Below are positions 1 through 20,935 of a DNA stretch of 64,000 nucleotides, in pieces. Every line of letters starts with the position of its first letter. The stretch's first letter is position 1. The DNA comes from Acidimicrobiales bacterium (GTDB lineage Bacteria; Actinomycetota; Acidimicrobiia; Acidimicrobiales; JBBRKR01): the NCBI GenBank assembly GCA_038231795.1, contig JBBRKR010000007.1, positions 16,491 to 80,490 of the forward strand, in the 5' to 3' direction. The notes beneath the pieces were generated by a model. The model was not told the origin of the DNA and did no database searches. It worked only from the letters and a program-made list of their open reading frames with translations. The translations under genes were made by a program, and so were the position numbers.

Positions 1-425
1 CGGCGCCCATTGTCGATGTCGTGCACGAATGGCGAGCCGTAGTTGGGAGCAAACACGGTGGCGTTGCCGCCGATCTGCACGTTGTTGGCTGGGTTGCGAG
101 CATGCTGGGTGTACATCGCTGGAGCGCTTGCTTGCACAATTTGGCGACACATGCCGCGCGGGAACCGCACTCGTGTGCCGTCCACTATGGCCCCGGCATC
201 GCCGAACACTTTGAGGGCGCTCGGGTAGTCGCGGATCTCCACGCCGACTTCTTCCAGAATGGTGTCGGCGTTGTGCTCGATGATGGCCAAGCCCTCTTCG
301 CTCACAATTTCGTACGGCTTGAGCGTGCGAGTCATGAATGGATCGCGGGCAATGGTGTGGGCTGCTCGTACGGCTTGACGCCCAGAGCGGCCGCCGCTGC
401 GGCGTGCGGTTGGTTCTTCTGACAT
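1..425 (-). CDS. MttB-superfamily (trimethylamine / glycine-betaine type) corrinoid methyltransferase. Only the N-terminal ~141 codons are present; the gene continues past the left edge.
   Basis: Absent from the ORF track because there is no stop in the window. The reverse complement from ATG (425-423) reads MSEEPTARRSGGRSGRQAVRAAHTIARDPFMTRTLKPYEIVSEEGLAIIEHNADTILEEVGVEIRDYPSALKVFGDAGAIVDGTRVRFPRGMCRQIV..., a typical MttB-family N-terminus. AGGAGG lies at 429-434 (rc). The gene starts 11 nt after the upstream activase gene. Confidence 0.8.
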   Translation of the reverse strand, partial: MSEEPTARRSGGRSGRQAVRAAHTIARDPFMTRTLKPYEIVSEEGLAIIEHNADTILEEVGVEIRDYPSALKVFGDAGAIVDGTRVRFPRGMCRQIVQASAPAMYTQHARNPANNVQIGGNATVFAPNYGSPFVHDIDNGR

Positions 426-436
426 GGGTCCTCCTG

Positions 437-2425
437 TTAGGCCCGGCGACGGCGTCGGCCGCCAGCAGATTCGGATGATGCTGATCGTTCGGGGAGAGTA
501 ACGTGCGCCGCCATGTGCGTTGTGGGGGCATCGAGATGAGGAAAGGCCATGGCTTTCACGAACAGTTCCTGAAACTTGGGTTCGGTGGCTGTCTCAATTT
601 TGATGACGCCCCGCACTGCGAGTTCCATATCGGCGCGTTGCGATTTACTGAGCAACGCTCGCACAGCGCCGGCTCCCGCGGCGTTGCCGACTGACCGCAC
701 GCCAGCCAGTTCACAGTCCGGTACGAGCCCCAAAACCATGGCGTACAGCGGGTCGATGTGGGCGCCGAATGCCCCGGCAAGACGGATGTCGGTGAGTTGC
801 TCGATGCCTGCTTGGTCGACCAACAAATCAATACCGGCCCGCAGCGCTGCCTTCGCCAATTGGATGGCCCGCACGTCGTTTTGAGTGATCATGAGCTTGG
901 TCTCGCCATTGGTATGCAGCACGTAGGAAAAGGTGCGACCCTCTGCGATGACGCGCGGGCTACGTTCGCTCGCGGCACCGTTAATCACACCGTCGTACTC
1001 CACGATGCCAGCCAAAAACATTTCGGCAATGACTTCGATAATTCCCGAGCCACAAATACCACTAATGCTGAGTTCTTCTGTCGATTCGGCAAAGCCTGGA
1101 TCGTCGCTCCACAAATCTGAGCCGATCACTTTGAAACGTGGTTCGAGCGTCTCGCGATCGATGCGGACCCGTTCGATAGCGCCGGCGGTAGCCCGCTGCC
1201 CACAACTGATCTGAGCGCCTTCAAACGCTGGCCCTGTGGGGCTCGACGCCGCGTATTGCACGACGCTTGACCCCAGCACGATTTCGGCATTGGTACCCAC
1301 ATCCACCACCAACTGCATATGGTCGCTGTGATGGGGCTGCTCGGACAAAATGACGGCAGCGGTATCGGCGCCCACATGGCCAGCAATGCAGGGAGCGAAA
1401 TAGACGTTGGCGTTGGGGGCATCAATTTCGATATCGATCGCCCGGCAATGCACTGGCTCGCTGGTCGCCAAGATAAACGGCGCCATGCCAAGAGGTGTGG
1501 GGTCGATACCCAACATCAGGTGATGCATGATCGGGTTACCCACCAACACCACGTCGAGTACGTGGGTGGCTTCCACGCCCGCTGCGGCAATCAGTTCTGC
1601 CACTAGTTCGTTGAGCGCGGTGCGAACGGCGGCGGTGAGGTTGCGCTCACCGCCCGGGTTCATCATCACGTACGACACTCGGCTCATGAGGTCTTCGCCG
1701 AAACGGATTTGAGGATTCATCCGCCCCGCGCTGCCCAGAATTTCGCCGGAGCTGAGGTCGCAAATATGCCCCGCAATAGTGGTGGAGCCACAGTCGATGG
1801 CCACTCCGTAGGCGTTGCCCACAAAGCCAGGCCACAACGCCACGAGATCGCCGCCAGTGCTGAGGGCCACGGTCATTGGCCCTCGTTCAGCGTTGAGTGT
1901 GGGATGCAACGATGCCAACAATCGAGGCGGGATCGATCGCATCACCCGGTTGTGTTGGGCCTCCACAGCGTCGGCAATGAGCTCGGCTGCGCTGCGGTCA
2001 TCGCCGAGTACAGCCTCTGTCACATCGAGGTAGAGCAGCGTATAGTTAGGGTCGACCATCAGGCCGTCGACGTTGACAGATTTGCGCACCACTTGGCGAT
2101 GCACTTGGCTCTCTTCGGGAACGTCGATCACTACGTCGCTTTTGATAATCGCCGCGCATCCCAGCCACAGGCCCGACGACAACGAACGCTTGCCGGGGTA
2201 GTCGAGTTCGGTCTGCGTCCAGCCGCCAAGGGCGTCGGCGCGGGCGTCGATCTGCCATTTGGCGAAACTACCGGTGCCGGGGGTCACCATGCATCGGCCG
2301 CAAATACCGCGCCCGCCGCACACTGAATCGATGTCAACTCCGAGTTGGCGGGCAGCCGTCAACACGTTGGTGCCCGCGTCGAATTCACCATCTAAACCAG
2401 ACGGAGTGAATACGACACGAGCCAC
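437..2425 (-). CDS. Corrinoid reductive activase (RACo-like): N-terminal 2Fe-2S ferredoxin domain plus ASKHA/DUF4445 ATPase domain
   Basis: 662 aa. N-terminal plant-type 2Fe-2S cysteine cluster SVCGGRGICGRC, followed by a long ASKHA-like body. Located inside the corrinoid methyltransferase operon. Confidence 0.8.
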   Translation of the reverse strand: MARVVFTPSGLDGEFDAGTNVLTAARQLGVDIDSVCGGRGICGRCMVTPGTGSFAKWQIDARADALGGWTQTELDYPGKRSLSSGLWLGCAAIIKSDVVIDVPEESQVHRQVVRKSVNVDGLMVDPNYTLLYLDVTEAVLGDDRSAAELIADAVEAQHNRVMRSIPPRLLASLHPTLNAERGPMTVALSTGGDLVALWPGFVGNAYGVAIDCGSTTIAGHICDLSSGEILGSAGRMNPQIRFGEDLMSRVSYVMMNPGGERNLTAAVRTALNELVAELIAAAGVEATHVLDVVLVGNPIMHHLMLGIDPTPLGMAPFILATSEPVHCRAIDIEIDAPNANVYFAPCIAGHVGADTAAVILSEQPHHSDHMQLVVDVGTNAEIVLGSSVVQYAASSPTGPAFEGAQISCGQRATAGAIERVRIDRETLEPRFKVIGSDLWSDDPGFAESTEELSISGICGSGIIEVIAEMFLAGIVEYDGVINGAASERSPRVIAEGRTFSYVLHTNGETKLMITQNDVRAIQLAKAALRAGIDLLVDQAGIEQLTDIRLAGAFGAHIDPLYAMVLGLVPDCELAGVRSVGNAAGAGAVRALLSKSQRADMELAVRGVIKIETATEPKFQELFVKAMAFPHLDAPTTHMAAHVTLPERSASSESAGGRRRRRA

Positions 2426-2433
2426 GAAAACTC

Positions 2434-3339
2434 CTATTCGGTCGGGCGTCGACGACGCCCGCCTTCACGGCCTTCACGCCCACCAGTTGGTGCGTTGGGG
2501 TCGCGGTTGGCGCGAATCCAGTTGGCGCAATCGGCATCGTTGCCCGCCAGTACGTCGGCTGCTTTTACGGCTGCTTTCACTTCAGGGTGCATTGGATTCA
2601 TAATCGCCGAGGTCATGCCTGCCCCGATGGCCATCGACAAGAAGGTGCCTGTGATGGCGTTTCGATTGGGTAATCCAAAGCTCACATTGGAGGCACCGCA
2701 TGTGGTGTTGACGCCCAGCTCGTCGCGCAGGCGACCCACCAACTTGAAGACTTGCTGACCGGCGTAACGCAGCGCCCCAATGGGCATCACCAGCGGATCG
2801 ACCACGATGTCACAGGGCTTGATGCCGTAATCGCTGGCGCGGTTCACAATCTTTTGCGCCACCAAGAAACGCACGTTGGGGTCTTCAGAAATTCCCGTTT
2901 CGTCGTTGGAAATGGCCACTACCGCAGCACCGTATTTGGCAACCAGCGGGAGAACTCGTTCCATTTGTTCGTCTTCGCCCGTAACGGAGTTCACGAGAGG
3001 CTTGCCTTGGTACACGGCCAGGCCAGCAGCGAGGGCTTCCACAATCGACGAGTCGATCGACAGCGGCACGTCGACCACCGACTGCACGAGTTGAATGGCT
3101 CGGGCCAGCAACGCAGGCTCATCAGCCAATGGGATACCAGCGTTGACGTCGAGCATTTGCGCACCGGCGAGCACTTGGGCAATGGCATCGGCTTCCACGC
3201 GGCTGAAGTCGCCGACTTTCATCTCTTCGGCCAACAGTTTGCGGCCAGTGGGGTTGATACGTTCGCCGATCATCACGAAAGCGCGATCGAACCCGATGAC
3301 GACTTCCTTGGTGGCTGAGCTCAATATGGTGTGGGTCAT
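2434..3339 (-). CDS. Pterin-binding methyltransferase (methylcorrinoid:tetrahydrofolate methyltransferase, MtgA/MeTr-like)
   Basis: 301 aa. Pterin-binding TIM-barrel signature regions: ERINPTG, LDVNAG, SIDSS, LVNSV, GASNVSFGLP. Its stop overlaps nothing, and its start overlaps the upstream gene by 4 nt. Confidence 0.8.
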   Translation of the reverse strand: MTHTILSSATKEVVIGFDRAFVMIGERINPTGRKLLAEEMKVGDFSRVEADAIAQVLAGAQMLDVNAGIPLADEPALLARAIQLVQSVVDVPLSIDSSIVEALAAGLAVYQGKPLVNSVTGEDEQMERVLPLVAKYGAAVVAISNDETGISEDPNVRFLVAQKIVNRASDYGIKPCDIVVDPLVMPIGALRYAGQQVFKLVGRLRDELGVNTTCGASNVSFGLPNRNAITGTFLSMAIGAGMTSAIMNPMHPEVKAAVKAADVLAGNDADCANWIRANRDPNAPTGGREGREGGRRRRPTE

Positions 3340-3764
3340 TCTTCGTCCTCGTCGTCGACGTTGGTGAAAGGGTCTGGTGCTTCTTCGCCATGTTCGGCGG
3401 CGTAGGCGGCATCGATGGCGTCGGCTTCTTTGACCCGATCGCGGCCCGGGCCGCGTAACACGTCGCCGCCTTCAATTCCCCCGCGGGCGGCCAAGTCGCG
3501 CAGGCGATCCTTGGTGTATTCGGCATCGATCAATCCGGCATGGGATGTGGCTTCGTTGATCAAGTCGTTGCTGCACGCTTTGGTTTCCCGCCGCCATTGT
3601 TCGACGTAGTCGTGAGCTGTGGTAACGCCAGCAAACATGGCGGCGCGATCGATGGCTTTTTGAAAGCGATGATCGAGCAACACTTGATGGCGGTCGCGAC
3701 CTGCCTGGGCGTTGACTTGGGCGGGGATGTCACGCCAATAAATCACAACCAATTTTGCCGCCAT
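3336..3764 (-). CDS. Small conserved protein of unknown function. It resembles the so-called 'virulence factor' family seen in corrinoid methyltransferase clusters. It has an acidic C-terminal tail.
   Basis: The internal ATG at 3764 gives MAAKLVVIYWRDIPAQVNAQ... (142 aa), starting 1 nt after the DUF1638 stop. The longer ORF to 3884 would overlap DUF1638 by 119 nt. The C-terminus is EEAPDPFTNVDDEDEE. Confidence 0.55.
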   Translation of the reverse strand: MAAKLVVIYWRDIPAQVNAQAGRDRHQVLLDHRFQKAIDRAAMFAGVTTAHDYVEQWRRETKACSNDLINEATSHAGLIDAEYTKDRLRDLAARGGIEGGDVLRGPGRDRVKEADAIDAAYAAEHGEEAPDPFTNVDDEDEE

Positions 3765-3765
3765 A

Positions 3766-4389
3766 TCAAACAACCTTCCCGGCCGACAGGCCAGTGATTT
3801 CCACCATTGCTGATGCGAATGGAGCGAGGCCCACATGACGATGTTCGAATCGCAAACCGATTCGGGCGGCGGCTTCTTGACCAAGGGTGATGAGTTCCGG
3901 ATCGTCTGATTGCGTGATCAAAATGACTCGTGTGTAGTTGCCAAAATACGTGTCACGGAGCTCGGGATGTTTGTCGAGACCGAGGCCCACAATCACCAGT
4001 TGTTCAAATTGGCGCACCAAGAAATCGGTGAGAAAAAACGTGCCGGGCTCGGCCTCGTGCCATGCCGCGAAATCGATGGAGCCGCTGAAAAACTCATAGC
4101 AATGCGCTCCAGGGAGACGGGTGATGTTCGTGCCGGCAATACGGGCGTCGAGCAATCCACCAGTGCCGCAATCGGCGTACCCCAAGCTGATCGAACCGTA
4201 GTTGGCTCCCCGTTCAGCGATGAGCTCACTCACCCGATCGGGTATGCGGTGGGGCCGATTGTGCAACGAGGCTGGAAGATATTCGACATCAATGTGGTGG
4301 TCAGGCAGTTGGGCAAGCACGGCACGTATCTCTCTGACTAACGCGCCGCAAGCAATAACGAGATGACGGTTAGGCGGAGTGTGCGGCAC
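3766..4389 (-). CDS. DUF1638 domain protein
   Basis: 207 aa. The region HLVIACGALVREI...YADCGTGGLLD...FFLTDFL matches my recollection of DUF1638, a family habitually linked to corrinoid methyltransferase genes. It overlaps the corrinoid protein gene by 20 nt. Confidence 0.6.
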   Translation of the reverse strand: MPHTPPNRHLVIACGALVREIRAVLAQLPDHHIDVEYLPASLHNRPHRIPDRVSELIAERGANYGSISLGYADCGTGGLLDARIAGTNITRLPGAHCYEFFSGSIDFAAWHEAEPGTFFLTDFLVRQFEQLVIVGLGLDKHPELRDTYFGNYTRVILITQSDDPELITLGQEAAARIGLRFEHRHVGLAPFASAMVEITGLSAGKVV

Positions 4390-5074
4390 GACGTTGCGCC
4401 ACCAAGGCCTTGGCCATTTCGGCGGCTACGGCGGCATCACGGCAGTAGGCATCGGCGCCAATGGCGTTCCCGAATTCTTCATTGAGTGGTGCACCGCCCA
4501 CCAACACGATGTAGTCGTCGCGCAGGCCCTTGGACACCAATGTGTCGATGACAACCTTCATGTATGGCATGGTCGTGGTGAGCAATGCCGACAGACCCAG
4601 GATGTCGGGCTTGTGCAATTCGAGGGCTGCCAAATATTTGTCGGCGTCGGTGTTGATGCCGAGGTCGAACACTTCGAATCCGGCGCCTTCCAACATCATC
4701 GCCACCAGGTTTTTGCCAATGTCGTGAATGTCGCCCTTGACGGTGCCGATGACCACTTTGCCGATCGGCGGGACGCCGGTCTCGGCCAACAGTGGCCTCA
4801 GAATAAACATGCCAGCCTTCATGGCGTTGGCGCTCAAAAGCACCTCCGGCACAAACAGGATTCCGTCACGGAAGTCGATGCCCACGATACGCATGCCCTC
4901 TACGAGAGCTTCATCTAGAACACGAGAGGCGCTCCACCCGCGACCCAACAAAATGTTGGTGCCCTCTGTGATTTCAGCGGCCAGACCGTCGTACAGATCG
5001 TCGTGCATCTGCTTGGTGAGGTCGTCGTCGTTCAGACTGTTGAGATCAATTTCTTCGAAATCGTCGTCGCTCAT
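4370..5074 (-). CDS. Corrinoid (cobalamin-binding) methyl-carrier protein, MtgC/MttC-like
   Basis: B12-binding helical cap plus a Rossmann domain with the DxHxxG motif (GDIHDIGKNLV). The start is chosen at ATG 5074 (MSDDDFEE...), which has AGGAG 7 nt upstream. The longest ORF starts at 5098. Confidence 0.85.
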   Translation of the reverse strand: MSDDDFEEIDLNSLNDDDLTKQMHDDLYDGLAAEITEGTNILLGRGWSASRVLDEALVEGMRIVGIDFRDGILFVPEVLLSANAMKAGMFILRPLLAETGVPPIGKVVIGTVKGDIHDIGKNLVAMMLEGAGFEVFDLGINTDADKYLAALELHKPDILGLSALLTTTMPYMKVVIDTLVSKGLRDDYIVLVGGAPLNEEFGNAIGADAYCRDAAVAAEMAKALVAQRRAAHSA

Positions 5075-5125
5075 CGTGGCTCCTAAAAGGCCCTGCATCG
5101 GGTGATGTCTGAGATGGGAATACTG

Positions 5126-5169
5126 TACGGAAATTCCGTAATGCGGAAACTATCCGCAATGTGGAATTT
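5126..5169. promoter_or_regulatory. Cluster of GGAA/TTCC palindromes: a candidate operator upstream of the corrinoid operon
   Basis: TACGGAA-A-TTCCGTA (5126-5140) is a perfect inverted repeat. TGCGGA-AACTA-TCCGCA lies at 5142-5158. TCCGCAATGTGGAAT (5153-5167) matches 12 of 15 positions of TCCGCTTCGTGGAAT at 11824-11838. Confidence 0.45.
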
Positions 5170-5180
5170 ACCCTGGGGAT

Positions 5181-5198
5181 GGTACCACGGTGGGTACC
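5181..5198. promoter_or_regulatory. GGTACCACG-GTGGGTACC element, repeated at 52849-52868
   Basis: GGTACCACGGTGGGTACC here versus GGTACCACGAGGTGGGTACC at 52849-52868. Both are intergenic and upstream of minus-strand genes. A related GTGGGTACGGCGGGTAC lies at 9135-9151. Confidence 0.35.
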
Positions 5199-5204
5199 GA
5201 ACGG

Positions 5205-6845
5205 TCACGCTGGCGTGATGTAGTAATCGACGTGTTCGGGAGGCAGCGGTTCGATGCCCAAAATGATGTCGGCGGCTTTCTCGGCCAACATCATCACGGG
5301 GGCATAAATATTGCCGTTTGTCACGTGACGCATGGCCGACGCGTCAACGACACGCAGCCCGCCAAGGCCATGCACGCGCATGGTGACGGGGTCGATCACG
5401 CTCATGTCGTCGGTGCCCATTCTGCATGTGCACGACGGGTGCAAAGCCGTCTCGCCATCGGTGCGAACCCACTCCAAAATCTCTTCCCCCGTGGCGACCG
5501 CCGGCCCTGGCGACAGCTCGCCGTTCGTGAACGGTTCGAACGCCGGCTGAGCCAAAATCAGGCGTGTGACACGCACGGCTTCTTCCCACTCTTGGCGATC
5601 TTCTGGGGTGGACAGGTAGTTGAATTGCAACTTTGGTTTGGCCCGCGGATCGCGGGAGGCAATCTTTACCCAGCCTCGCGAATTCGAATACATGGGGCCC
5701 ACGTGCACTTGATATCCGTGACCGCCAGCCGGGGCCGATCCGTCGTATCGCACTGCGATCGGCAAGAAGTGATACATCAGGTTGGGATACTTCACGGTGT
5801 CGTTGGAACGGATAAAGCCGCCCGCCTCAAAGTGGTTCGTGGCGCCGGGACCCTTGCGGAAGAACAGCCACTGGAACCCAATCCACGGGCGGTTGCGCCA
5901 CTTCAGCGCCGGTGCCATCGACACTGGTTGTTTGCAGCCGTGCTGCACGTAGACCTCTAGGTGGTCTTCCATGTTTTCGCCAACGCCCGGAAGGTCATGC
6001 ACCACGGGGATGCCGAGAGTGGCGAGTTCAACGGCGTTGCCCACGCCTGACAATTGCAGTATTTGGGGGGTGTTGATGGCGCCGCCGCACAAGATGATTT
6101 CTTTGCCCACCGCCACGGTGGTGGCGCCTTTGCGAATTTGGTACTCCACACCAGTGGCTGTTTTGCCGTCGAAAATGATCTTGTTGACCAATGCTCTGGT
6201 GAGCACGGTGAGGTTGGGCCGCGACTTCTTTACTGGATGCAAATAGGCACGGGCGGCCGACAGGCGACGACCATTACGAATGTTGCGGTCAAACATGGCG
6301 AAGCCTTCCTGCTTATACCCGTTGACATCCTTCGTGAGCGGGAATCCAGCCTGTTGCACTGCTTCGAAAAAGGCACCAAACAACGGGTTTGTGGCCGGGC
6401 CACGCTCGAGCTCCAATGGGCCATGATCACCGCGGTATTCGTCGCCACCGGCAAGGCAATTTTCCATGCGTTTGAAGTACGGCAAACAGTGGGCGTAGCT
6501 CCACGTGGCCATGCCCGGCTCGCTCGCCCACCGCTCGAAATCCAATGGGTTGCCGCGTTGGAAAATCATGCAGTTGATGCTGGATGACCCACCGAGCACT
6601 TTGCCGCGAGCGTGGTAGATCTTGCGTCCGTTCATAAATGGCTCTGGTTCTGACTCGTATTTCCAATCGTAGAATTTGCTGCCGATCGGAAACGTGAGCG
6701 CAGCGGGCATGTGTATGAACACGTCCCACTTGTAATCGGGCCGCCCTGCCTCGAGCACGAGCACCTTGTTGTTGGGGTCGGCGCTCAGGCGGTTGGCAAG
6801 TGCGCAACCAGCTGAACCTCCACCCACGATGATGTAGTCGTACAT
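5205..6845 (-). CDS. betA: Choline dehydrogenase (GMC flavoprotein oxidoreductase)
   Basis: 546 aa. The N-terminus [33 protein letters not shown]...MPAAL...[12 protein letters not shown]...[11 protein letters not shown] closely parallels BetA. Confidence 0.85.
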
Positions 6846-6869
6846 CGGAATCTCGCTATTCGTGTTGCT

Positions 6870-8339
6870 CTAGTAGGGCGCCTCGACGTCGCCCATTTCG
6901 ACGTAGACGCTTTTGATTTGTGTGTAGTGATTGATGGCAGCGGATCCGTTTTCGCGGCCGATTCCCGATTGCTTGTAACCGCCGAACGGCATCTCGATGG
7001 GCGTGATGTTGTAGTTGTTAATCCATGTGGTGCCGGCCTGCAAACGGGCGATCACGTCGTGGGCTCGCCGGAGATCGTTAGTGAACACGCCAGCCGCCAA
7101 GCCAAACTCGGTGTCGTTGGCCCGGGCCACAACTTCGTCGTCGTCGTCGAAGCTGAGCACGCACATGACGGGGCCGAAAATCTCTTCCTGAACGATGGTC
7201 ATGTCGTCGCGGCAGTCGTCGAAAATCGTGGGCAGAACGAAGTTGCCATTGGCCAATGCGGGGTCTTCTGGTCGGCTGCCGCCACACACCACATGGGCAC
7301 CTTCTGCGATGCCGGCTGCGATGTAGCCAAGCACCTTGGCGGTGTGATCTTGGGAGATTAAGGCGCCCACATGGGTGGCGGGATTTTGAGGGTCGCCGAT
7401 CACCATTTTGCGGGTGCGGGCCACGAGACGGCGCACAAACTCGGCCTTGATCGACGAGTGCACGAACACCCGAGTGCCGTTGGAGCACACCTCGCCTTGG
7501 GTATAGAAGTTGGCCATGAGCGCGGCCGATACGGCGTTGTCGAGGTGGGCATCTTCGAAAATAATGAGCGGACTTTTGCCGCCCAGTTCCAGGGTGACGC
7601 TCTTGAGTGTGTCAGCGGCTTGGGCCATGACCTTGCGGCCGGTGCCCACTTCGCCAGTGAGCGACACCTTGGCCACGCCGGGATGGGAGCTCAGCATCTG
7701 CCCCACGCGTCCGTCGCCTTGCATCACGTTGAACACGCCGTCGGGTAGACCAGCTTCTGTGTAGATCTCGGCCAGTTTCATGGCCGTGAGGGGTGTGAGT
7801 TCGGCGGGCTTGAAGATCATGGCGTTGCCGCATGCCAGGGCGGGAGCTGATTTCCAACAGGCGATTTGGATCGGGTAATTCCATGCCCCGATGCCCACGC
7901 ACACACCAAGCGGTTCCCGGCGGGTGTAAGCCCAATTGCGGCCCAGATCAATGTGCTCTCCCGTGAGGGTGGCCGCCATTCCCGCGTAGTACTCGATGCA
8001 ATCTGCGCCCGACAGAACGTCCACGTAGAGCGCTTCGGAAATGGGCTTGCCGGTGTCGATTACTTCGAGCCTGGCGAGTTCTGCGTTGCGTTCCCGCAAG
8101 ATGCGTACCGCGTTGTTGAGGATGCGGCCCCGGGCCGCGCCCGACATGGAACGCCACTGGGCAAAGCCCTCCTGTGCCGATGTGACACATGCGTCAACAT
8201 CGGCGGCCGACGACTGACCCACTGCCGTGATGACGGTGTTGGTGGCCGGGTTGATGGAGTCAAACGTCTCGCCGGAGGTGACGGGCGAATGGGCGCCGTG
8301 AACGTAGTTGCCCACGGTCGAGGTGGAGGTGGGGTTCAC
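6870..8339 (-). CDS. betB: Betaine-aldehyde dehydrogenase (NAD-dependent ALDH family)
   Basis: 489 aa. ALDH motifs TLELGGKSP and GEVCSNGTR (catalytic Cys). Lies directly upstream of betA. Its start overlaps the IclR stop by 4 nt. Confidence 0.8.
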
Positions 8340-9112
8340 GATGCATGCTCCGATTTCACGGTGGTCAGGGTGGTGTTGTCAACGATTCGCTTTGCCGTGT
8401 CGATGACTGTTTGCGCAACTTCTGCTGCCGTGCCGGCCGAGGGGAATCGGTAGGCCGGCCCATGGGCATGGACGGCGCCGATCACCTCACCAGTTCGGGA
8501 AATGATTGGCGCAGCAACCGAATTGATGCCCTCCAGAAACTCTTCGTACACCCAACAAAATCCTTGGTGCCGTATGGCGGTGAGGCGTTTGCGCACGGCT
8601 CGGTGCTCCACCACCGAATTGGCGGTGAAGCGTTCCAACGGTCGCGACAAGTAGTCGTCGACAAATTCAGTTGGCGAGTGGGCCAGGAGAACTAGCCCAG
8701 AGGAGACCACGTGCAGCGGTACAGATTCGCCTGTCCAGTCGCGTACCTGCACGGCGTTGGTGGACTCCACTTGATCGATGTAACGCACTGAGCCACCATC
8801 CATCACGCTTAATCCAGTGGCTTCTCCGGTGTCATTCATAAGCGCCACCAGATGGGGTTTGGCGGCTGCGCCAAGGTCCCGGCCTGGTTGCACGGCGTCG
8901 GCGATTTCGAGGAACCCAGCACCGATCCGGTAGCGGCCGCCTGACGTAATTTGCTCAACTGCGCTGAGTTGTTCCAGCGTGCTCAAAAGACGCGACACGG
9001 TGCTTTTGGGCAGCCCGACAATGTCGGCCAATTCAGTGACTCCCGCTGCTCCCCCGGCCAAGCTGCGCAACACAGAAAAGGCTCGCTCGATTGATTGAAC
9101 GCTCGACATCAA
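8336..9112 (-). CDS. IclR-family transcriptional regulator
   Basis: 258 aa. N-terminal wHTH ([14 protein letters not shown]...[23 protein letters not shown]) followed by an IclR effector domain. Confidence 0.85.
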
Positions 9113-9153
9113 ACTCCCTTGTGCGCTTCTCTGTGTGGGTACGGCGGGTACTT

Positions 9154-10008
9154 CTACTTAGGAAAGGCGTTCTGCAGCCGGGCCGCAGTGAGTGTGTTTT
9201 CCAACAGGCAGGCAATAGTCATGGGCCCGGTGCCGCCGGGCATTGGCGTGATGGCCCCGGCGACATGTTGCACGTTGTCGAAATCCACGTCGCCCACGAT
9301 GCCGCTTTCGGTGCGCGACACACCCACATCGATGACTGTGGCCCCGAGCTTCACGTGGTCGACGGTCACCATGCGAGCCTGGCCAGCGGCGGCCACAATG
9401 ATGTCGGCATCGCGACAAACGTCGATCATGTCGGGCGTGCGCGAATGGGCCAGCGTCACAGTGGCGTCGACACCCTTGCGGGCCAAAAGCAACACTTGGG
9501 GAAGGCCCACCAGGGTGCTGCGACCAATGACCACGGCCCGCTTGCCGGCGGTAGGAATGTTGTAGCGCTCCAGCAATCGGATGACCCCGAGAGGCGTGCA
9601 CGGCACGAGGCCAGGCGTACCGCGAACCAGCCGGCCCATCGATTGTTCTGTGAGTCCGTCGACGTCTTTCTCGGGCGGAATGTGGGCCAACACAGCCTCG
9701 GCATCGAGCCCGGCTGGCAACGGAAGTTGGCACAAAATGCCGTGAACAGAAGGGTCGGCGGCCAGCGCCTTAACGGCATCTTCGACCTGTTGCTGGGTGG
9801 CGTCTTGAGGGAGCTCCACGTGTCGCGATGCCATACCTGCTTCTTGAGCCTTCTTGTGCTTGGAACGCACGTAAATCTGGCTGGGTTTGTCGACGCCAAC
9901 CAACACGGTGGCGAGGCACACATTGGGGTTGCCAGCGGCTTCGATGGTGACCCGCAACTGGGCCACCATCTCGTCGCGAAGTTTGTTGCCATCGAGCAGT
10001 ATTGCCAC
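9154..10008 (-). CDS. folD: Bifunctional methylene-THF dehydrogenase / methenyl-THF cyclohydrolase
   Basis: 284 aa. LATVLVG...PSQIYVRSKHKKA, GILCQLPLP, VVIGRSTLVG and PGGTGPMT are classic FolD blocks. Confidence 0.9.
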   Translation of the reverse strand: MAILLDGNKLRDEMVAQLRVTIEAAGNPNVCLATVLVGVDKPSQIYVRSKHKKAQEAGMASRHVELPQDATQQQVEDAVKALAADPSVHGILCQLPLPAGLDAEAVLAHIPPEKDVDGLTEQSMGRLVRGTPGLVPCTPLGVIRLLERYNIPTAGKRAVVIGRSTLVGLPQVLLLARKGVDATVTLAHSRTPDMIDVCRDADIIVAAAGQARMVTVDHVKLGATVIDVGVSRTESGIVGDVDFDNVQHVAGAITPMPGGTGPMTIACLLENTLTAARLQNAFPK

Positions 10009-10041
10009 GATTGTTGTCGCTTTCTTGTCGTCGTTGACGGC

Positions 10042-11739
10042 CTAGCTGAGGCCGATGATTTCGCCGTTTTCATCGAAGTCGATGATGCTGGCAGCAGGGG
10101 CAGATCCGAGGCCGGGCATGGTGGTCATTTCGCCACAGATCGGGTAAATGAACCCTGCGCCCACCGAGGCACGGGCCTCTCGCACGTTGAGGGTGTGGCC
10201 AGTGGGCGCGCCCTTGAGGGTGGAGTCGCCAGAGATGGAAAGGTGAGTCTTGGCAATGCACACCGGAAGGTGGCCGAAGCCGTTCTTTTCGTAGCGGGCC
10301 AGCTGCGTGTTGGCTACTGCCGAGTAGGTGACATTGGCAGCGCCGTAGATCTTGGTAGCGACCGCTTCAATTTTCTCTTTGAGGGTGGCGGTGTCGGGGT
10401 AGCAGAAGGCGAACGTGTTCTCCTCGTTGCATGCTTCGACCACGGCGCGAGCCAGGTCGGTGGCGCCAGCACCGCCGTCAGCAAAGTGAGTGCATACCGC
10501 CACGCGGGCGCCGACTGATTCGGCGATTTCGCGGATGGCTTGATGCTCGCTGGCGAAGTCGCCGGGGAAGGCGTTGATGGCCACCACTGGTGACACGCCG
10601 TGCACCTTGACGTTTTCGATTTGCTTGATGAGGTTCGCAGCGCCGGCGCGCACGTCGTCGGGATTTTCGGCAAGCAGGTCGGCGGGAAGGGGCTTGCCGG
10701 CCACGATCTTGAACTTGCCACTGTGGGCCTTGAGGGCACGCACGGTGGCCACCAACACAGCTGCGTCGGGGACCATGCCAGAGTTACGGCACTTGATGTT
10801 GAAGAAGCGTTCTGCGCCCATGTCGGCGCCGAAGCCAGCCTCTGTGATGAGGTAGTCGCCGGCGTGGATGCCGATCATGTCACCCACGATTGACGAGTTG
10901 CCGTGAGCAATGTTGCCGAACGGACCAGCGTGGACAATCACAGGAGTGTTTTCGAGCGTCTGCAACAAGTTGGGCTTGATGGCTTCACGCATGATGACGG
11001 CCATGGAGCCGGCGCCTTTGAGTTGCTCGGCGGTGACGGGGGTGCCGTCTTTGGTGTAACCCACCACGATGCGTCCCATGCGGGCTCGCATGTCTTCCAC
11101 AGAGGTCGACAGCGCCAAGATGGCCATCACTTCGCTGGCGGCCGTGATGTCGAAACCGGTTTGGCGTACGACGCCATCGGCCTTGCCACCGAGGCCCACG
11201 ATGATGTTGCGCAGGCTGCGGTCGTTGACGTCCATCACTCGACGCCATGTGATGTTGTCGATATCAAGGCCCAACTCGTTGCCTTGGTGCAGATGGTTGT
11301 CGACCATGGCGCTGAGCAAATTGTGGGCTGCGGTCACGGCGTGGAAATCGCCGGTGAGGTGAAGGTTGAGCAATTCCATGGGAATCACTTGGCTGTACCC
11401 GCCGCCGGCCGCGCCGCCCTTGATACCAAACGTGGGGCCCATCGAAGGTTGGCGAAGGCTGATGACAGCGTTCTTGCCGATGTGCTTCATGGCTTGGCCG
11501 AGGCCGACGGTGGTGGTGGTTTTGCCTTCGCCCAGCGGTGTGGGGGTGATGGCGGTGACCACCACGTATTTGGCTTTGGGGCGATCTTTGAGTTCGTCGA
11601 TCGCTTCCAGTTTGATCTTGGCCAATTCGGGACCATACGATTCTAGCAGATGAGGACCGATGCCCATTTGGGCGGCGATTTCGGTGAGCGGCAGTGGTTT
11701 GCCTGCTCGGGCGATTTCAAGATCAGACGGAAATCCCAT
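10042..11739 (-). CDS. fhs: Formate--tetrahydrofolate ligase
   Basis: TPLGEGKTTTTVGL P-loop and family-wide conservation. The start is chosen at ATG 11739 (MGFPSDLEIA...). The longest ORF begins at GTG 11790. Confidence 0.9.
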   Translation of the reverse strand: MGFPSDLEIARAGKPLPLTEIAAQMGIGPHLLESYGPELAKIKLEAIDELKDRPKAKYVVVTAITPTPLGEGKTTTTVGLGQAMKHIGKNAVISLRQPSMGPTFGIKGGAAGGGYSQVIPMELLNLHLTGDFHAVTAAHNLLSAMVDNHLHQGNELGLDIDNITWRRVMDVNDRSLRNIIVGLGGKADGVVRQTGFDITAASEVMAILALSTSVEDMRARMGRIVVGYTKDGTPVTAEQLKGAGSMAVIMREAIKPNLLQTLENTPVIVHAGPFGNIAHGNSSIVGDMIGIHAGDYLITEAGFGADMGAERFFNIKCRNSGMVPDAAVLVATVRALKAHSGKFKIVAGKPLPADLLAENPDDVRAGAANLIKQIENVKVHGVSPVVAINAFPGDFASEHQAIREIAESVGARVAVCTHFADGGAGATDLARAVVEACNEENTFAFCYPDTATLKEKIEAVATKIYGAANVTYSAVANTQLARYEKNGFGHLPVCIAKTHLSISGDSTLKGAPTGHTLNVREARASVGAGFIYPICGEMTTMPGLGSAPAASIIDFDENGEIIGLS

Positions 11740-11800
11740 GGCGTACAGTCCCCTTGTGCATTCGATTCGCCCTTGTGGCGCAGAACCCACAGTCTAACCT

Positions 11801-11840
11801 ACGATTCCATCATGAGGAACGATTCCGCTTCGTGGAATAC
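11801..11840. promoter_or_regulatory. GGAA/TTCC repeat cluster in the divergent fhs / pabBC promoter region
   Basis: ACGATTCC is a direct repeat at 11801-08 and 11819-26. Inverted repeats are TTCC-N7-GGAA (11805-19), GGAA-CGA-TTCC (11816-26) and ATTCC-N7-GGAAT (11822-38). It shares GGAA-N4-TCCGC-N3-GTGGAAT with 5145-5167. Confidence 0.45.
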
Positions 11841-13691
11841 CTGACCAACACCGTGCCTGTTTTGGAATCGACGTCGGCAATCAATGTTCGTTTTGACGAC
11901 CTCACTCCTGGCGCTCCCCAAGCGTGGGAGTTTGTCGGCCTGGAGTCGATCATCGTGGCCACCGGTTTTGATGACGTGGTTCCCGCGTTGGCCGAAGCAT
12001 CACAGGCCGCTGGAGCTGGAAAATGGGTGGCGGGATTTGTGAGCTATGAGGCCGCTGCTGGCATCGATTCCTTGTTCGTCATTTCGGCTAGCGACCATGC
12101 ATGCCTGCCGTTGGTGTGGTTCGGGGTATTCGATTCCCGCACACCTGTTGAGCCGATCGATGCCCAGCCGCCCACGCCCGATGAGTGGTCGGTGGCCGAT
12201 GTGTCGCTGGCCTTCGGACGAGAGTGGCATACGAAATCGGTGGAGGTCATTCGAGAAGCGATTGCCGCTGGCGACGTGTATCAAGTGAATCTGTGCGACA
12301 GAGCGCGAGGCGTGTTTGCGGGCGACTCGCTGGCCATGTACCGATCGTTGGCTCACGCCCAACGCGCCAAATATCACGCCTACATTTCGACGCCCGATTT
12401 CACCGTGGTATCGGCATCGCCGGAATTGTTTTTCGAACTCTCCTCCCCTGTTGTCGATGGCTCTTCGGCGGGCCAGATGATTCGCACCCGTCCCATGAAA
12501 GGCACCGCTCGACGGGGCCGATGGCCAGCAGAAGATCGGGCTCGGGCGGCGGCACTTTTCGAATCGCCAAAGGAGCGGGCCGAGAACGTGATGATCGTGG
12601 ATCTATTGCGCAACGACCTGGGCCGCATAGCCGAGGTGGGCTCTGTGCAGGTGACTGATTTGCTTGGCCTCGAGCGCTATCCCACGGTGTGGCAATTGAC
12701 GTCGACCATCGAAGCGAACCTGACGCCGGGCACCGATTTCGTCGACGTGATGACGGCGTTGTTTCCGTGTGGTTCGATCACTGGTGCACCGAAAATCGCC
12801 GCCATCCACCACATTGCCGATCTGGAACACGAGCCGCGTGGTGTGTATTGCGGCGCCATTGGATGGCTCGCTCCGCCTCACGCAACCGGGCCGGCGGCAC
12901 GGTTTTCGGTGGCGATCCGCACCGCAGTAATCGACCAGCGAAGTGGCGCTGTGGAGTACGGGGCGGGCGGCGGGATCACTATCGATTCGGAACCAGTGGC
13001 CGAGTTCGATGAGCTCCGCTCGAAGCACAGAATTCTGACTCACCCGTCGGCCACGGCATCGATTCTGGAGACCATGTTGTGGACGTCGGCGGCCGGGATC
13101 GAGTTGCTGGAATCTCATCTCGATCGCATGGAGCGGTCGGCCGAATACTTCGCCCATCCCTTCGATCGCCACGCCATCCGATCGGAGATTCTTGCCGTGT
13201 GTGGCGCAGGTGGTTCGGAAGCGTTCATGGTGCGAGCGTTGCTCAACCCCCATGGCGTGCTGACGGTTGAATTGCGCGATCCGCCGGCTGCTCACGGCGG
13301 GCCGGTTCGATTGGCGGTGCACCATCACGCAATCGACAACAATGATCCCCGGTGGTACCACAAGACGACCGACCGGGCCCGTTACGCGGAGGCCAAACTG
13401 CACCACCCCGATGCCGACGACATCGTGTTCGTGAACCAGTACGGCCAAGTCACAGAGACCACGATGTACGCAGTGGCAGCGCTCATCGATGGCGTGTGGC
13501 TCACCCCGCCTATCGAAGACGGGTGCCTGCCCAGTGTGGCCACCCGAACTGCGGTTGCCCTGGGCCATTTGACGCGTTCGTCAATTTCGGTGGAACAATT
13601 CTTGGCGGCGTCGGAAATCAAAGTGGGGAATGCGGTGCGGGGCTGGCAACCGGCCAGTGCACATTCAGAGCCACTGGTTTCCGAAAGATAA
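11832..13691 (+). CDS. pabB: Fused aminodeoxychorismate synthase component I (PabB) and aminodeoxychorismate lyase-like class IV aminotransferase (PabC)
   Basis: Chorismate-binding blocks VYQVNL, PELFFEL, TRPMKGTARRG, ENVMIVDLLRNDLGR, FPCGSITGAPK and RGVYCGAIGW, followed by a C-terminal ~200 aa class IV-like domain. The start is uncertain: GTG 11694 would overlap fhs, and GTG 11832 or GTG 11853 are the alternatives. Confidence 0.8.
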   Translation: MEYLTNTVPVLESTSAINVRFDDLTPGAPQAWEFVGLESIIVATGFDDVVPALAEASQAAGAGKWVAGFVSYEAAAGIDSLFVISASDHACLPLVWFGVFDSRTPVEPIDAQPPTPDEWSVADVSLAFGREWHTKSVEVIREAIAAGDVYQVNLCDRARGVFAGDSLAMYRSLAHAQRAKYHAYISTPDFTVVSASPELFFELSSPVVDGSSAGQMIRTRPMKGTARRGRWPAEDRARAAALFESPKERAENVMIVDLLRNDLGRIAEVGSVQVTDLLGLERYPTVWQLTSTIEANLTPGTDFVDVMTALFPCGSITGAPKIAAIHHIADLEHEPRGVYCGAIGWLAPPHATGPAARFSVAIRTAVIDQRSGAVEYGAGGGITIDSEPVAEFDELRSKHRILTHPSATASILETMLWTSAAGIELLESHLDRMERSAEYFAHPFDRHAIRSEILAVCGAGGSEAFMVRALLNPHGVLTVELRDPPAAHGGPVRLAVHHHAIDNNDPRWYHKTTDRARYAEAKLHHPDADDIVFVNQYGQVTETTMYAVAALIDGVWLTPPIEDGCLPSVATRTAVALGHLTRSSISVEQFLAASEIKVGNAVRGWQPASAHSEPLVSER

Positions 13692-14778
13692 CGCCTGCCG
13701 TTTTTGGTTCGCCATCAAGGCGAATGTGGGGCAAAAATTTGATGATCGAACTCAGCGCGCTGCGGGCTTCCATACGAGCAAGCTGGGCGCCGATACAGGC
13801 GTGCGGGCCTTGGGCGAAGGTCACGTGATTGCGTGCGTTGAATCGGCTGATATCGAATTCGTCGGGATTTTTGAAGTAGTCAGGATCGCGGTTCGCTCCG
13901 GCAAGAGACACGACCACGAGGTCTCCAGTGGAGATTTTGGCGCCCCCCAAAGTGGTGTCGCACGTGGCGTACCTGTCGACGCGGGCGGCAGCGGGCTCGA
14001 ATCGCAACGACTCGTCTACGGCGCCATCGATCAATTCCGGCGCGTTGCGCACGGCCTCGAATTGGGCGGGATGCATCAACAAATGGTGGATCAAATTTGC
14101 CGTCATGGCCTCACTGGTTTCGATGCCGCCGAAGAGGAATACTGCGGCATTCGAAGCCACTTCATCGGGTGTGAGATGAAGGGCCGCTTCGGCAAGAGGT
14201 GACGCCTCGGCAAGTTGCGCTTCGCCGATGGCAGCGGCCAAATTTCGGTACGCCATCGCCCCGGCTTCGCTCACTGGATGGCCCTGCGACACACCTTCCA
14301 CGCTCTGAACGATGGCCTCATACCAACGCAACAAGTCGGTCGTATTCACGTCGTGCAGGCCAAGCGAAAGCGCGACGACCGACACTGCCAAAGGTCCGCA
14401 CAATTGCCTCCTCAATTCGGCCGTGCCATTGTCTTGCAGGCCGATCACAAGGCCGTCGGATGCTTGTTGGATTCGGTCGGCGTAGTGGGCCACCACGGCG
14501 GGCCGGAAGGCGTCCACGAACGGCTGGCGATGGCGTCGTTGATCAACGCCGTCGAGCGACAACATGCTGGGGCCCACCACTTGGGCGGTGCTGAATCGGG
14601 GGTCGTCGACGGTGAAGGTGGCGGCATCGCGCATGACCTCGATGGCGAGCTGGCGAGAGGTTACGACCCAACCGCCCAAGGCCTGCGCCCATGCCACTGG
14701 CGATGACGCTCGCAGCGCGGCGATGGCCTCATGATGCCGTTCGTCAAACATAGCGAGTGACAACTCAGGCAAGGTCAT
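13618..14778 (-). CDS. Cytochrome P450
   Basis: 386 aa. Heme-thiolate loop FAQGPHACIGAQLA and an EXXR region (ESLRFEP). Its 3' end overlaps the convergent pabBC by 74 nt. Confidence 0.85.
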   Translation of the reverse strand: MTLPELSLAMFDERHHEAIAALRASSPVAWAQALGGWVVTSRQLAIEVMRDAATFTVDDPRFSTAQVVGPSMLSLDGVDQRRHRQPFVDAFRPAVVAHYADRIQQASDGLVIGLQDNGTAELRRQLCGPLAVSVVALSLGLHDVNTTDLLRWYEAIVQSVEGVSQGHPVSEAGAMAYRNLAAAIGEAQLAEASPLAEAALHLTPDEVASNAAVFLFGGIETSEAMTANLIHHLLMHPAQFEAVRNAPELIDGAVDESLRFEPAAARVDRYATCDTTLGGAKISTGDLVVVSLAGANRDPDYFKNPDEFDISRFNARNHVTFAQGPHACIGAQLARMEARSALSSIIKFLPHIRLDGEPKTAGVIFRKPVALNVHWPVASPAPHSPL

Positions 14779-14906
14779 GAGCAGGCAGGTTACCGATCGC
14801 CGCGACGAGTCGCCTCAGCTGGCTCGGAGGTCAATGGTCCAGCGCCCAAAGGGCAGAGCCGAGCTCCCGAACTAAGATGCGCCGACACGAAAGGCCGACG
14901 GCGCGC

Positions 14907-16543: not shown

Positions 16544-16617
<74 letters not shown>

Positions 16618-20768: not shown

Positions 20769-20892
20769 ACTTCCGTCGCCGAGGCCGGTTTTTGTGTAGT
20801 CGTGTGGCCCGTCGCTGTATATCGAACCAATTCGACGATTCGGGATGGGCGTGTGCGGCCGTCGATACGCATAATCACGTCAAGATTGCGAG

Positions 20893-20913
20893 TGGCCAAG
20901 GTTGCCTTGGACA
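20893..20913. promoter_or_regulatory. Palindrome upstream of sodA (candidate operator)
   Basis: TGGCCAAGG-TTG-CCTTGGACA has 9-3-9 symmetry with one mismatch. It ends 23 nt before the sodA ATG. Confidence 0.35.
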
Positions 20914-20935
20914 TATTTCCGGTTACCGTCACCAC

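Follow-up and report, generated by a model that had tools for sequence, protein, structure and literature searches.

The window analysed here is a stretch of 64,000 nucleotides (nt) from an Acidimicrobiales bacterium (GCA_038231795.1, contig JBBRKR010000007.1, here G000:C7:16491-80490), whose genome has a completeness of 100% and a contamination of 0.42%. The first 13.7 kb of this window are the right-hand two-thirds of a gene island of about 20 kb, which is cut by the left window edge (base 1). Judged from gene content and family assignments, the island encodes, with a probability of about 0.8, the oxidation of choline to glycine betaine together with a cobalamin (B12)-dependent demethylation of the aerobic MtgBCD type.

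Gene content, gene order and coupling, family membership, the conserved core, a shared sequence motif with its specificity across the genome, and protein fusions are computed results. Substrate, methyl relay, corrinoid reactivation, flow of one-carbon (C1) units and demethylation of dimethylglycine are assigned by analogy with published relatives, and the route would run as follows. BetA and BetB would oxidize choline to glycine betaine, one methyl group of which would be transferred by the MtgB-like enzyme of the MttB family to the Co(I) corrinoid of MtgC. MtgD would hand this methyl group over from MtgC to tetrahydrofolate (THF), and a RACo/RamA-like activase would use ATP to re-reduce the corrinoid once oxidized, with the DUF1638 and PF13769 proteins as putative accessories of MtgC and MtgD. 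Methyl-THF would then be oxidized to methylene-THF by a homologue of methylenetetrahydrofolate reductase (MTHFR), after which FolD and Fhs would lead from methylene-THF through formyl-THF to formate and ATP, or the C1 units would enter biosynthesis. The next methyl group would be taken off by an enzyme resembling dimethylglycine dehydrogenase (DMGDH), the electrons of which would pass to its own electron-transfer flavoprotein (ETF), EtfBA. The features of the island that lie in the window are listed in Table 1.

Table 1. Genes and operator-like elements of the island in window coordinates, with profile scores and curated cut-offs
Feature	Position	Strand	Evidence
mtgB-like gene, non-pyrrolysine MttB-family methyltransferase, 5' part (first 141 codons)	1..425	-	PF06253 733 bits; full gene C7:15377-16915
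RACo/RamA-like ATP-dependent reductive activase (N-terminal 2Fe-2S ferredoxin + ASKHA)	437..2425	-	PF14574 277 bits, PF17651 159, PF17650, PF00111
mtgD/mtgA-like gene, pterin-binding methyl-THF:corrinoid methyltransferase	2434..3339	-	PRK07535 350 bits (cut-off 259); PF00809 94.5
PF13769 ('Virulence_fact') small protein	3336..3764	-	PF13769 61.9 bits
DUF1638 protein	3766..4389	-	PF07796 88.7 bits
mtgC, corrinoid (B12-binding) protein	4370..5074	-	PF02310, PF02607; open reading frame reaches 5098
Operator-like element, betA/mtgC spacer	5134..5167	.	Motif, two overlapping opposite-strand copies
betA, choline dehydrogenase (GMC family)	5205..6845	-	TIGR01810 842 bits (cut-off 732)
betB, betaine-aldehyde dehydrogenase	6870..8339	-	PRK13252 808 bits (cut-off 593); TIGR01804 690 (cut-off 669)
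IclR-family regulator	8336..9109	-	PF01614 118 bits, PF09339 54.6 bits
folD, methylene-THF dehydrogenase/methenyl-THF cyclohydrolase	9154..10008	-	PF02882 198 bits, PF00763 115 bits
fhs, formate-tetrahydrofolate ligase	10042..11739	-	PF01268 827 bits; PRK13505 805 (cut-off 652)
35-nt palindromic operator-like element, fhs/pabBC spacer	11804..11838	.	Motif
pabB-pabC fusion (aminodeoxychorismate synthase component I + class IV aminotransferase)	11832..13691	+	TIGR00553 335 bits (cut-off 328); PF00425 267; PF01063 105

The corrinoid module and its described relatives

Several features of the published aerobic MtgBCD systems occur side by side in the island: a full-length PF06253 methyltransferase of the non-pyrrolysine kind, a corrinoid protein with the B12-binding signature DxHxxG that groups with proteobacterial copies, an MtgD, and an activase accompanied by a DUF1638 protein. 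The signature of MtgC (D123-x-H125-x-x-G128) is invariant in eight orthologues. Copies from Rhodobacterales and rhizobia share 70-76% identity with the MtgC of the island (73% for Ruegeria arenilitoris, L092, and 74% for Mesorhizobium, L080), and those from other Actinomycetota and from Chloroflexota share 77-88%. For MtgD, identities range from 61 to 80% with proteobacterial copies and from 61 to 86% with copies across other phyla. The best NCBIfam matches of the mtgC product are MtgC models (207 and 165 bits), and the activase matches AcsV (322 bits) and the RamA-type model TIGR04270 (109 bits), all of them under the respective cut-offs. The module is therefore classed with the aerobic MtgBCD systems and is not a new kind of system; a corresponding substrate and activity would follow by analogy.

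Among aerobic bacteria, Ruegeria pomeroyi depends on MtgC and MtgD both to grow on glycine betaine and to synthesize methionine, and its MtgB (PF06253), RamA, DUF1638 protein and MetF2, a metF paralogue, are induced on choline, carnitine and betaine, as stated in the main text of Mausz et al. (PNAS 2025, PMC12478193). The same text describes the mtg genes of other bacteria as often co-located with genes for later demethylation and C1 oxidation, assigns about 5% of ocean mtgC reads to Actinomycetota, and separates aerobic MtgC phylogenetically from the MtgC of anaerobes of the Desulfitobacterium hafniense and Methanolobus vulcani type (PMC12478193). The island resembles R. pomeroyi DSS-3, as presented there, in its MtgB, MtgC, MtgD, RamA-like activase, DUF1638 protein and extra MTHFR paralogue, and in the link to betAB, dimethylglycine demethylation and THF-linked C1 oxidation; it differs in that the genes are scattered in DSS-3 (PMC12478193), whereas here they belong to a co-directional array of 12 genes that also includes folD, fhs and the gene for an IclR regulator. 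The host is also different, being an Actinomycetota genome that has MetH as well.

Anaerobic glycine betaine methyltransferase systems composed of MtgB, MtgC and MtgA are reportedly present in D. hafniense and M. vulcani, both said to be anaerobes. The three-component logic is said to be the same, and the MttB protein of the island aligns over its full length with 2qne. As for the bet genes, the betIBA/betT system of Escherichia coli comprises a TetR-type regulator (BetI) and a BCCT transporter, and betaine is stored. Here, too, betA and betB are adjacent and co-directional, and both products exceed curated equivalog cut-offs, whereas the regulator is of the IclR type, the genome is devoid of a BCCT transporter, and the product would be catabolized and not only stored.

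The MttB-family enzyme and the identity of the methylated substrate

The window frame at 3..425 (-) is the start of an MttB-family gene of 512 amino acids (aa), free of internal stops, whose match to PF06253 covers the whole model (1-500/500). A frame at 1..531 (-) was rejected as a gene, having no family match and overlapping the genuine mttB. Since mttB contains no in-frame TAG, its product is not a pyrrolysine-type trimethylamine enzyme. An Rfam PYLIS_3 match lies inside the gene (L002:15778-15877, minus strand, 40.1 bits for a gathering score of 38) and probably reflects coding-sequence homology to pyrrolysine-type mttB, not a functional element. Among solved structures the protein matches 4yyc (686 bits), 2qne (416 bits) and 9yce, deposited as 'Glycine betaine methyltransferase' (415 bits). 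In NCBIfam it matches the trimethylamine model only, at 258 bits for a cut-off of 525. As no equivalog is available, the betaine assignment rests on the genomic context and on the 415-bit similarity.

It is conceivable that the enzyme acts on another amine, such as choline, proline betaine, carnitine, gamma-butyrobetaine or trimethylamine, in which case the betaine reading would be only partly right. The MttB superfamily indeed has characterized enzymes for several quaternary amines, according to the main text of PMC12478193; the sub-threshold trimethylamine match in NCBIfam points the same way, and the best solved relative, 4yyc, is described just as a 'putative trimethylamine methyltransferase'. 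This alternative is nevertheless unlikely. The gene sits between betAB, which make betaine, and a DMGDH-like gene with its ETF of the kind that consumes the demethylated product; the similarity to 9yce and the lack of an in-frame TAG also speak against it, and a better candidate for other substrates is provided by a paralogue that is 40% identical and is encoded beside a gamma-butyrobetaine-dioxygenase-like gene.

This paralogue (530 aa) belongs to a second methylated-amine island of the same genome (G000:C2:133095-142300; L146:7042-16304), which also contains a DMGDH-like gene, a major facilitator superfamily (MFS) transporter, a SoxA-like gene (Fer2_4+GCV_T), a SoxB-like gene (401 bits, under the cut-off) and the gamma-butyrobetaine-dioxygenase-like gene (318 bits, under the cut-off). 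As it is devoid of a corrinoid protein, the C2 island would depend on the C7 island for MtgC, MtgD and the activase. Across the genome there are ten GCV_T matches, six of them in frames of 755-859 aa, and five of these six match the DMGDH-like protein of the C7 island by tblastn. The soxAB-like genes of C2 and the other DMGDH-like paralogues are candidates for the conversion of sarcosine to glycine.

Genes beyond the left window edge

The rest of mttB, a gene for an MTHFR homologue, dmgdh, etfB and etfA are found 0-6.2 kb to the left of window base 1. The preliminary description, made from the window letters, had reported that a MetF-type gene and genes for dimethylglycine or sarcosine oxidation were absent; these statements arose because the window edge cut the array inside mttB, and they no longer stand. 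The genes for the MTHFR homologue and dmgdh-etfBA lie just outside the window, a canonical metF adjoining icd, mdh and purH is present elsewhere in the genome, and the soxAB-like genes are on C2.

The MTHFR homologue (279 aa) follows mttB directly, with an overlap of 14 nt or a spacer of 4 nt depending on the start chosen. Its score against the Pfam MTHFR family (19.8-20.9 bits) is under the 24-bit cut-off, as against 244.5 bits for the canonical MetF of the genome. It aligns with 7xg9, the S6MTHFR structure, over residues 5-277 (E-value 1.3e-32), which is the sole solved chain at E <= 0.1. Relatives at 52-60% identity are annotated as MTHFR in metagenome-assembled genomes (MAGs) of Ilumatobacteraceae, Acidimicrobiales and other Actinomycetota, and the protein is 27-31% identical to alphaproteobacterial paralogues encoded beside mtgD.

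S6MTHFR is the type example of the type 4 MTHFRs, which oxidize methyl-THF, make no use of NAD(H) and are encoded with THF-dependent demethylases; the survey that defined them started from the LigM, DesA, CmuAB and Dmt demethylases, not from MttB systems (text of Yu et al., Commun Biol 2025, PMC11868366). The ligM-metF-ligH genes of Sphingobium lignivorans SYK-6 and the cmuAB-linked MTHFR gene of Methylorubrum extorquens CM4 resemble the island in that a demethylase making methyl-THF is encoded beside a non-canonical MTHFR, and in SYK-6 a formyl-THF ligase gene is adjacent as well (PMC11868366). When the type 4 residues of loop b2-a3, helix a8 and loop b8-a11 that are named in the text of that paper, as distinct from its motif figure, are counted by hand on the 7xg9 alignment, the homologue has two of the seven, Pro49 and Phe269; Leu48, Arg78, Phe215, Cys219 and Pro268 are replaced by Ser, Leu, Met, Leu and Thr, so that Cys219, which is called crucial there, is a leucine here (PMC11868366). 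With two residues of seven, the oxidative direction is putative, as would be any electron acceptor. The protein resembles S6MTHFR far more than canonical MetF, yet its type 4 membership is not established.

The dmgdh gene encodes an 838-aa protein of the dimethylglycine-dehydrogenase type (DAO+GCV_T), reads divergently from a spacer upstream of it and is followed by etfB and etfA. This unit is convergent with the gene for the MTHFR homologue, with 7 nt between the stop codons. EtfBA was considered as the electron acceptor of the MTHFR homologue; pairing of the ETF with DMGDH was judged to be the simpler explanation, because the ETF always stands beside dmgdh in the loci seen.

Layout of the island and translational coupling

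Twelve genes of the island follow one another in one direction on the minus strand over 13.7 kb (C7:14551-28229), and addition of dmgdh-etfBA and pabBC gives 16 genes and 19.9 kb. The array contains fhs, folD, iclR, betB, betA and the corrinoid module on the minus strand, all with strong family matches, and a plus-strand pabB-pabC fusion with PabB and class IV aminotransferase domains diverges from fhs, just as the preliminary description had it. Its extent of 11.7 kb was too short, the array continuing past base 1 with mttB and the MTHFR homologue. The short spacers that it proposed are found at 10 of the 11 junctions of the array, where genes overlap or are separated by at most 44 nt (range -20 to +44 nt), and not between betA and mtgC, the sole wider junction, which measures 106-130 nt depending on the start of mtgC, probably the ATG at 5074, with AGGAG upstream. 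The stop of iclR overlaps the start of betB by 4 nt, the spacers from fhs through betA are 24-44 nt long (24 nt for betB/betA), and translational coupling ties the genes for MttB and the MTHFR homologue to the corrinoid module. The divergent fhs/pabBC spacer spans 92 nt when the start of fhs is taken as the ATG at 11739, preceded by GGGGA. The start of pabBC is uncertain, with candidates at 11832, 11853 and 11862, and the C-terminal domain of its product matches the general family PF01063 (105 bits) and 'hypothetical protein' models under their cut-offs, with nothing more specific.

Searches of the left flank and the whole window with Rfam at gathering thresholds yielded no riboswitch in the island, only two tRNAs and the PYLIS_3 match. 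A scan of window positions 1-14000 for promoter and terminator consensus sequences gave 4 promoter-like and 14 terminator-like hits, compared with 3.6 and 14.2 in shuffled sequences, and is uninformative for a genome of such high GC content.

An operator-like element shared by three spacers

The three spacers between transcriptional units share an element of 22-23 nt, GGAA-N4-TC(C/T)-N-CA(T/A)-N2-TGGAAT, located 65, 71 and 73 nt upstream of the start codons of fhs, mtgC and dmgdh, respectively. In the betA/mtgC spacer, two overlapping copies of GGAA-N4-TCCGCAT-N2-TGGAA lie on opposite strands, and the motif is kept in the orthologous spacer of a genome of the same genus (L050:1273). In the fhs/pabBC spacer, two overlapping opposite-strand copies form the 35-nt palindrome ATTCCA-N7-GGAA-N3-TTCC-N7-TGGAAT, which reaches the first start candidate of pabBC. 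The strict pattern occurs three times in 3.15 Mb, always in these spacers, for 0.014 occurrences expected from base composition, a count that is optimistic because the pattern was derived from the same three sites.

Matrix scans give further support for the specificity of the element. With a matrix built from seven sites of relatives only, the sites of the island occupy ranks 1, 2, 4, 5 and 8 genome-wide, the fhs/pabBC palindrome accounting for ranks 2 and 5. The intervening ranks 3, 6 and 7 belong to hits within genes (polA, RNase E/G and AAA-VWA), and no other intergenic site reaches that score. A matrix from all 11 instances, with which the relatives' own sites score partly by construction, was run on 15 loci of relatives, and in 8 of them sites scoring 17 bits or more closely precede mtgC. 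In one of the loci (L069), sites precede both iclR and mtgC and also lie between dmgdh and fhs, and in a Chloroflexota locus (L066) a site separates divergent iclR and mtgC. The motif is thus found beside adjacent iclR homologues in these two loci, and it is also found in two others (L044, L085) with no iclR within 10 kb.

Comparison across genomes provides good evidence that the island, including the promoter region of pabBC, may be under common regulation. Three units carrying the motif would be co-regulated, namely fhs-folD-iclR-betB-betA, the series from mtgC to the MTHFR homologue, and dmgdh-etfBA. The IclR protein of the island itself, for which no NCBIfam equivalog was reached, would be the most plausible binder of the putative operator.

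Conservation in relatives

Among 40 relatives of the same order, MtgC orthologues of at least 79% identity occur in nine, and one more genome has an orthologue at 49%; the other MtgC matches in these relatives are frames of roughly 990-1400 aa (MetH-like). Ten of the same-order loci were fetched, eight of which are long enough to show the order of the module. In all eight the order mtgC-(DUF1638)-PF13769-mtgD-activase is identical, DUF1638 being missing in L051, and in six of them mttB comes after the activase. The genome of the same genus repeats the genes from betA-mtgC to mttB-MTHFR homologue as far as its contig goes. Further variation is seen in G007, a relative of 2.0 Mb with a more complete variant of the array (L045 = G007:C1:272900-292890), in which a BHMT/MtgE-type gene (PRK07534, 501 bits, cut-off 338) and a DAO oxidase gene are followed by the MTHFR homologue, mttB, RACo, mtgD, PF13769, DUF1638, mtgC, betA, an OpuAC-type ABC transporter, folD and fhs. 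Genes for fhs and/or folD adjoin the module in four genomes (G007, G028, G024 and G002), in different arrangements, and pabBC homologues of 37-38% identity do so in G039, G016 and a Microthrix-labelled MAG (L109).

A sample of 80 loci from other species was also compiled, in which neighbours were counted within 10 kb of mtgC. The most frequent is iclR (19 loci), followed by the MTHFR homologue (14), dmgdh (13), betA (9), fhs (6), folD (2) and pabBC (1). Two types of locus can be distinguished. Type A (51 loci, MtgC at least 64% identical) comprises Acidimicrobiia, Chloroflexota, Alpha- and Gammaproteobacteria. Type B (29 loci, MtgC 43-52% identical) comprises mostly other Actinomycetota, with the usual order mttB(-), iclR, mtgC, mtgD, activase, DUF1638. 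The core of the module is syntenic. Around it, genes of one functional set recur in varying selections, and the array as a whole is common to close relatives only. The synteny on which the preliminary description made its proposal depend accordingly holds for the core order and fails for the flanking genes.

In a FastTree phylogeny of MtgC, MtgD and RACo, the Acidimicrobiia copies nest in a mostly proteobacterial clade, apart from the type-B actinobacterial clade, with supports of 82-95. The tree has 39 rows (the window and the 38 of the 80 loci that have all three genes), midpoint rooting only and one long branch. Its topology is compatible with transfer of the module between phyla and is no test of such transfer.

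Folate genes: dedicated branch or neighbours

It could be argued that fhs, folD and pabBC are independently transcribed housekeeping genes of folate and C1 metabolism that merely abut the betaine module, the motif being fortuitous or unrelated. All three are single-copy and must be expressed when choline is lacking, no sigma-70-type promoters or terminators rise above chance, and fhs and folD are near mtgC in a minority of the 80 loci only. These arguments are outweighed by the overlap of iclR and betB and the tight spacing from fhs through betA, by the presence of the motif at similar distances from three starts and nowhere else between genes at that score, by its conservation in other genera and in Chloroflexota loci, and by the recurrence of fhs, folD or both beside the module of four relatives in differing arrangements. 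Mere juxtaposition is therefore quite improbable.

The single-copy status does have one consequence. By tblastn, folD, fhs, betA, the activase, DUF1638, PF13769 and the MTHFR homologue each occur once in the genome, and of three chorismate-binding genes pabBC alone is PabB-like. As the only copies, folD, fhs and pabBC must supply biosynthesis too, which rules them out as a branch dedicated to catabolism. The link drawn in the preliminary description between methyl capture, interconversion of C1-THF and folate supply is upheld by the gene families, by the published MtgBCD systems and by recurrence in relatives. The pabBC part of this link gains some support from the palindrome in the fhs/pabBC spacer and from the pabBC homologues beside the module in three other genomes.

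A number of observations weigh against the interpretation of the island as a co-regulated pathway from choline through glycine betaine to formate. No NCBIfam equivalog model names the MttB protein, whose family includes members for other quaternary amines, and the MTHFR homologue has few of the type 4 residues. There is no transporter in the island. The genes folD, fhs and pabBC have no second copy and may stand here as part of a general folate/C1 neighbourhood rather than as a branch reserved for oxidation, and in the 80-locus sample fhs is within 10 kb in only 6 loci and folD in 2. The flanks vary: betB and iclR are missing from the G007 array, which has an OpuAC-type transporter in their place. 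Besides the optimism of the strict motif count, no motif of at least 17 bits was found in 7 of the 15 relatives' loci, among them that of G007.

Comparison with the split methionine synthase

The split methionine synthase of Phaeobacter inhibens is similar in its genes, a corrinoid protein being followed there by DUF1638, a pterin-binding subunit and a RamA-like DUF4445 activase (text of Price et al., PLoS Genet 2018, PMC5764234). That system was defined by methionine auxotrophy and has a homocysteine-binding subunit, whereas the island has none and the genome has MetH (PMC5764234). That the module is mainly such a synthase, MtgC and MtgD acting with a homocysteine-binding MtgE and the bet neighbourhood being secondary, is very improbable, for although the genome has three stand-alone genes with a homocysteine S-methyltransferase domain and G007 has its BHMT/MtgE-type gene by the module, a full-length MetH (1231 aa) and a canonical metF are present, the island contains no homocysteine-binding gene, and the module is joined by translational coupling to mttB and the MTHFR homologue.

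The DUF1638 and PF13769 proteins

Two conserved proteins accompany MtgC and MtgD. Across 43 DUF1638 sequences, C14, H43, P46, G78, T121 and D122 are invariant and D73, C74, H96 and C97 nearly so, which hints at a metal or cofactor site. The PF13769 gene occupies the same position in the eight relatives' loci of sufficient length and is found in 22 of the 51 type-A loci and in none of the 29 type-B loci. Among 3493 candidates, seven longer relatives of PF13769 are fusions, all collinear with the gene order: DUF1638-PF13769 (P0123, P0124, P0127), PF13769-MtgD (P0122, P0125, P0126) and DUF1638-PF13769-MtgD (P0128). They are public metagenome proteins, some of which could be gene-calling artefacts; two of the clusters have 5 and 13 member sequences.

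Prediction of a complex between MtgC and DUF1638 gave a score of 0.40 (0.40, 0.38 and 0.41 in the runs; 0.01 for the best of three controls), a weak pass, given that only 18 of 157 solved complexes reach the mark with a score of 0.60 or less and that both of the passing mismatched pairs lie in this range; over all scores the mark is reached by 116 of the 157 solved complexes and 2 of 215 mismatched pairs, and these counts are rough here, own alignments having been used. The runs agree in at least 90% of contacts, with a partner pLDDT (predicted local distance difference test) of at least 81.

Searches of solved structures with the DUF1638 and PF13769 sequences gave no match at E <= 1. The best Foldseek match of the DUF1638 model (pLDDT 93.4) is the cobalt chelatase CbiK (1qgo, E 1.1e-3, TM 0.30), from which no function is drawn, and its best VIA-align Z of 8.2 is among generic Rossmann/flavodoxin-like folds. 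For the PF13769 model (pLDDT 85.9), nothing was found with Foldseek at E <= 0.001 (best 0.12), and the best VIA-align Z is 3.6. An ESM Atlas search with the PF13769 protein returned PF13769 clusters only, a literature search on 'PF13769' found nothing, and neither the main text of PMC12478193 nor the part of its supplement that was consulted mentions the gene.

A two-part proposal can be put forward, tentatively and as something that may well prove wrong. The IclR protein may run the three promoters through GGAA-N4-TCCGCAT-N2-TGGAA, and the DUF1638 and PF13769 proteins may bridge MtgC and MtgD in the proteobacterial-like type-A systems, as physical subunits. The second part draws on the fixed gene order, the restriction of PF13769 to type A, the natural fusions and the weak score of the MtgC-DUF1638 complex.

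The genomic setting

The lack of a betaine or choline transporter mentioned in the preliminary description applies to the island and not to the genome, in which no BCCT transporter gene was found and one OpuAC-type substrate-binding gene is located beside a permease gene on contig C10. Cobalamin genes are represented by one CobS and three TP_methylase-family matches only (C5:187950-188639, C7:142969-143604, C1:257466-258068 and C1:272074-272670), which look too few for de novo corrin synthesis. The cofactor on which the island depends may be salvaged instead. A possible sink for formate made by Fhs is a molybdopterin oxidoreductase encoded at window positions 52999-55191 (+); of the NCBIfam models it matches formate dehydrogenase subunit alpha best, at 195 bits for a cut-off of 666.

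To the right of the island, a cytochrome P450 gene (window 13618-14778, -) overlaps the end of pabBC by 74 nt with its 3' end and is followed by prfC (14877-16502, +), a tRNA gene (16544-16614, +) and a gene for an McrC-like restriction component (17889-18866, -); none of these appears related to the island. A 648-aa frame at 19592-21538 (+) has Fe/Mn superoxide dismutase as its only family match (residues 450-640), and its long N-terminal part is probably an over-extended call of the open reading frame.

Significance

Both glycine betaine and choline rank among the major osmolytes and serve as carbon sources rich in nitrogen. The aerobic, B12-dependent route of demethylation was recognized only in 2025, mainly in marine Proteobacteria. 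The island would place the same machinery in an actinobacterium of the Acidimicrobiia type, with choline oxidation through to formate in one array and a DMGDH with its own ETF, an arrangement that is unusually complete and compact and could serve as a template for annotation and heterologous reconstitution. Beyond the published description, it adds a candidate operator and regulator, a conserved small PF13769 protein and a divergent MTHFR, none of which changes the kind of system. If IclR does act through the putative operator, the catabolic genes would form a methyl-osmolyte regulon with the only folD and fhs of the genome and, via the 92-nt spacer, with pabBC, so that the cell would adjust its folate cofactor supply and its housekeeping C1 enzymes to the influx of methyl groups.

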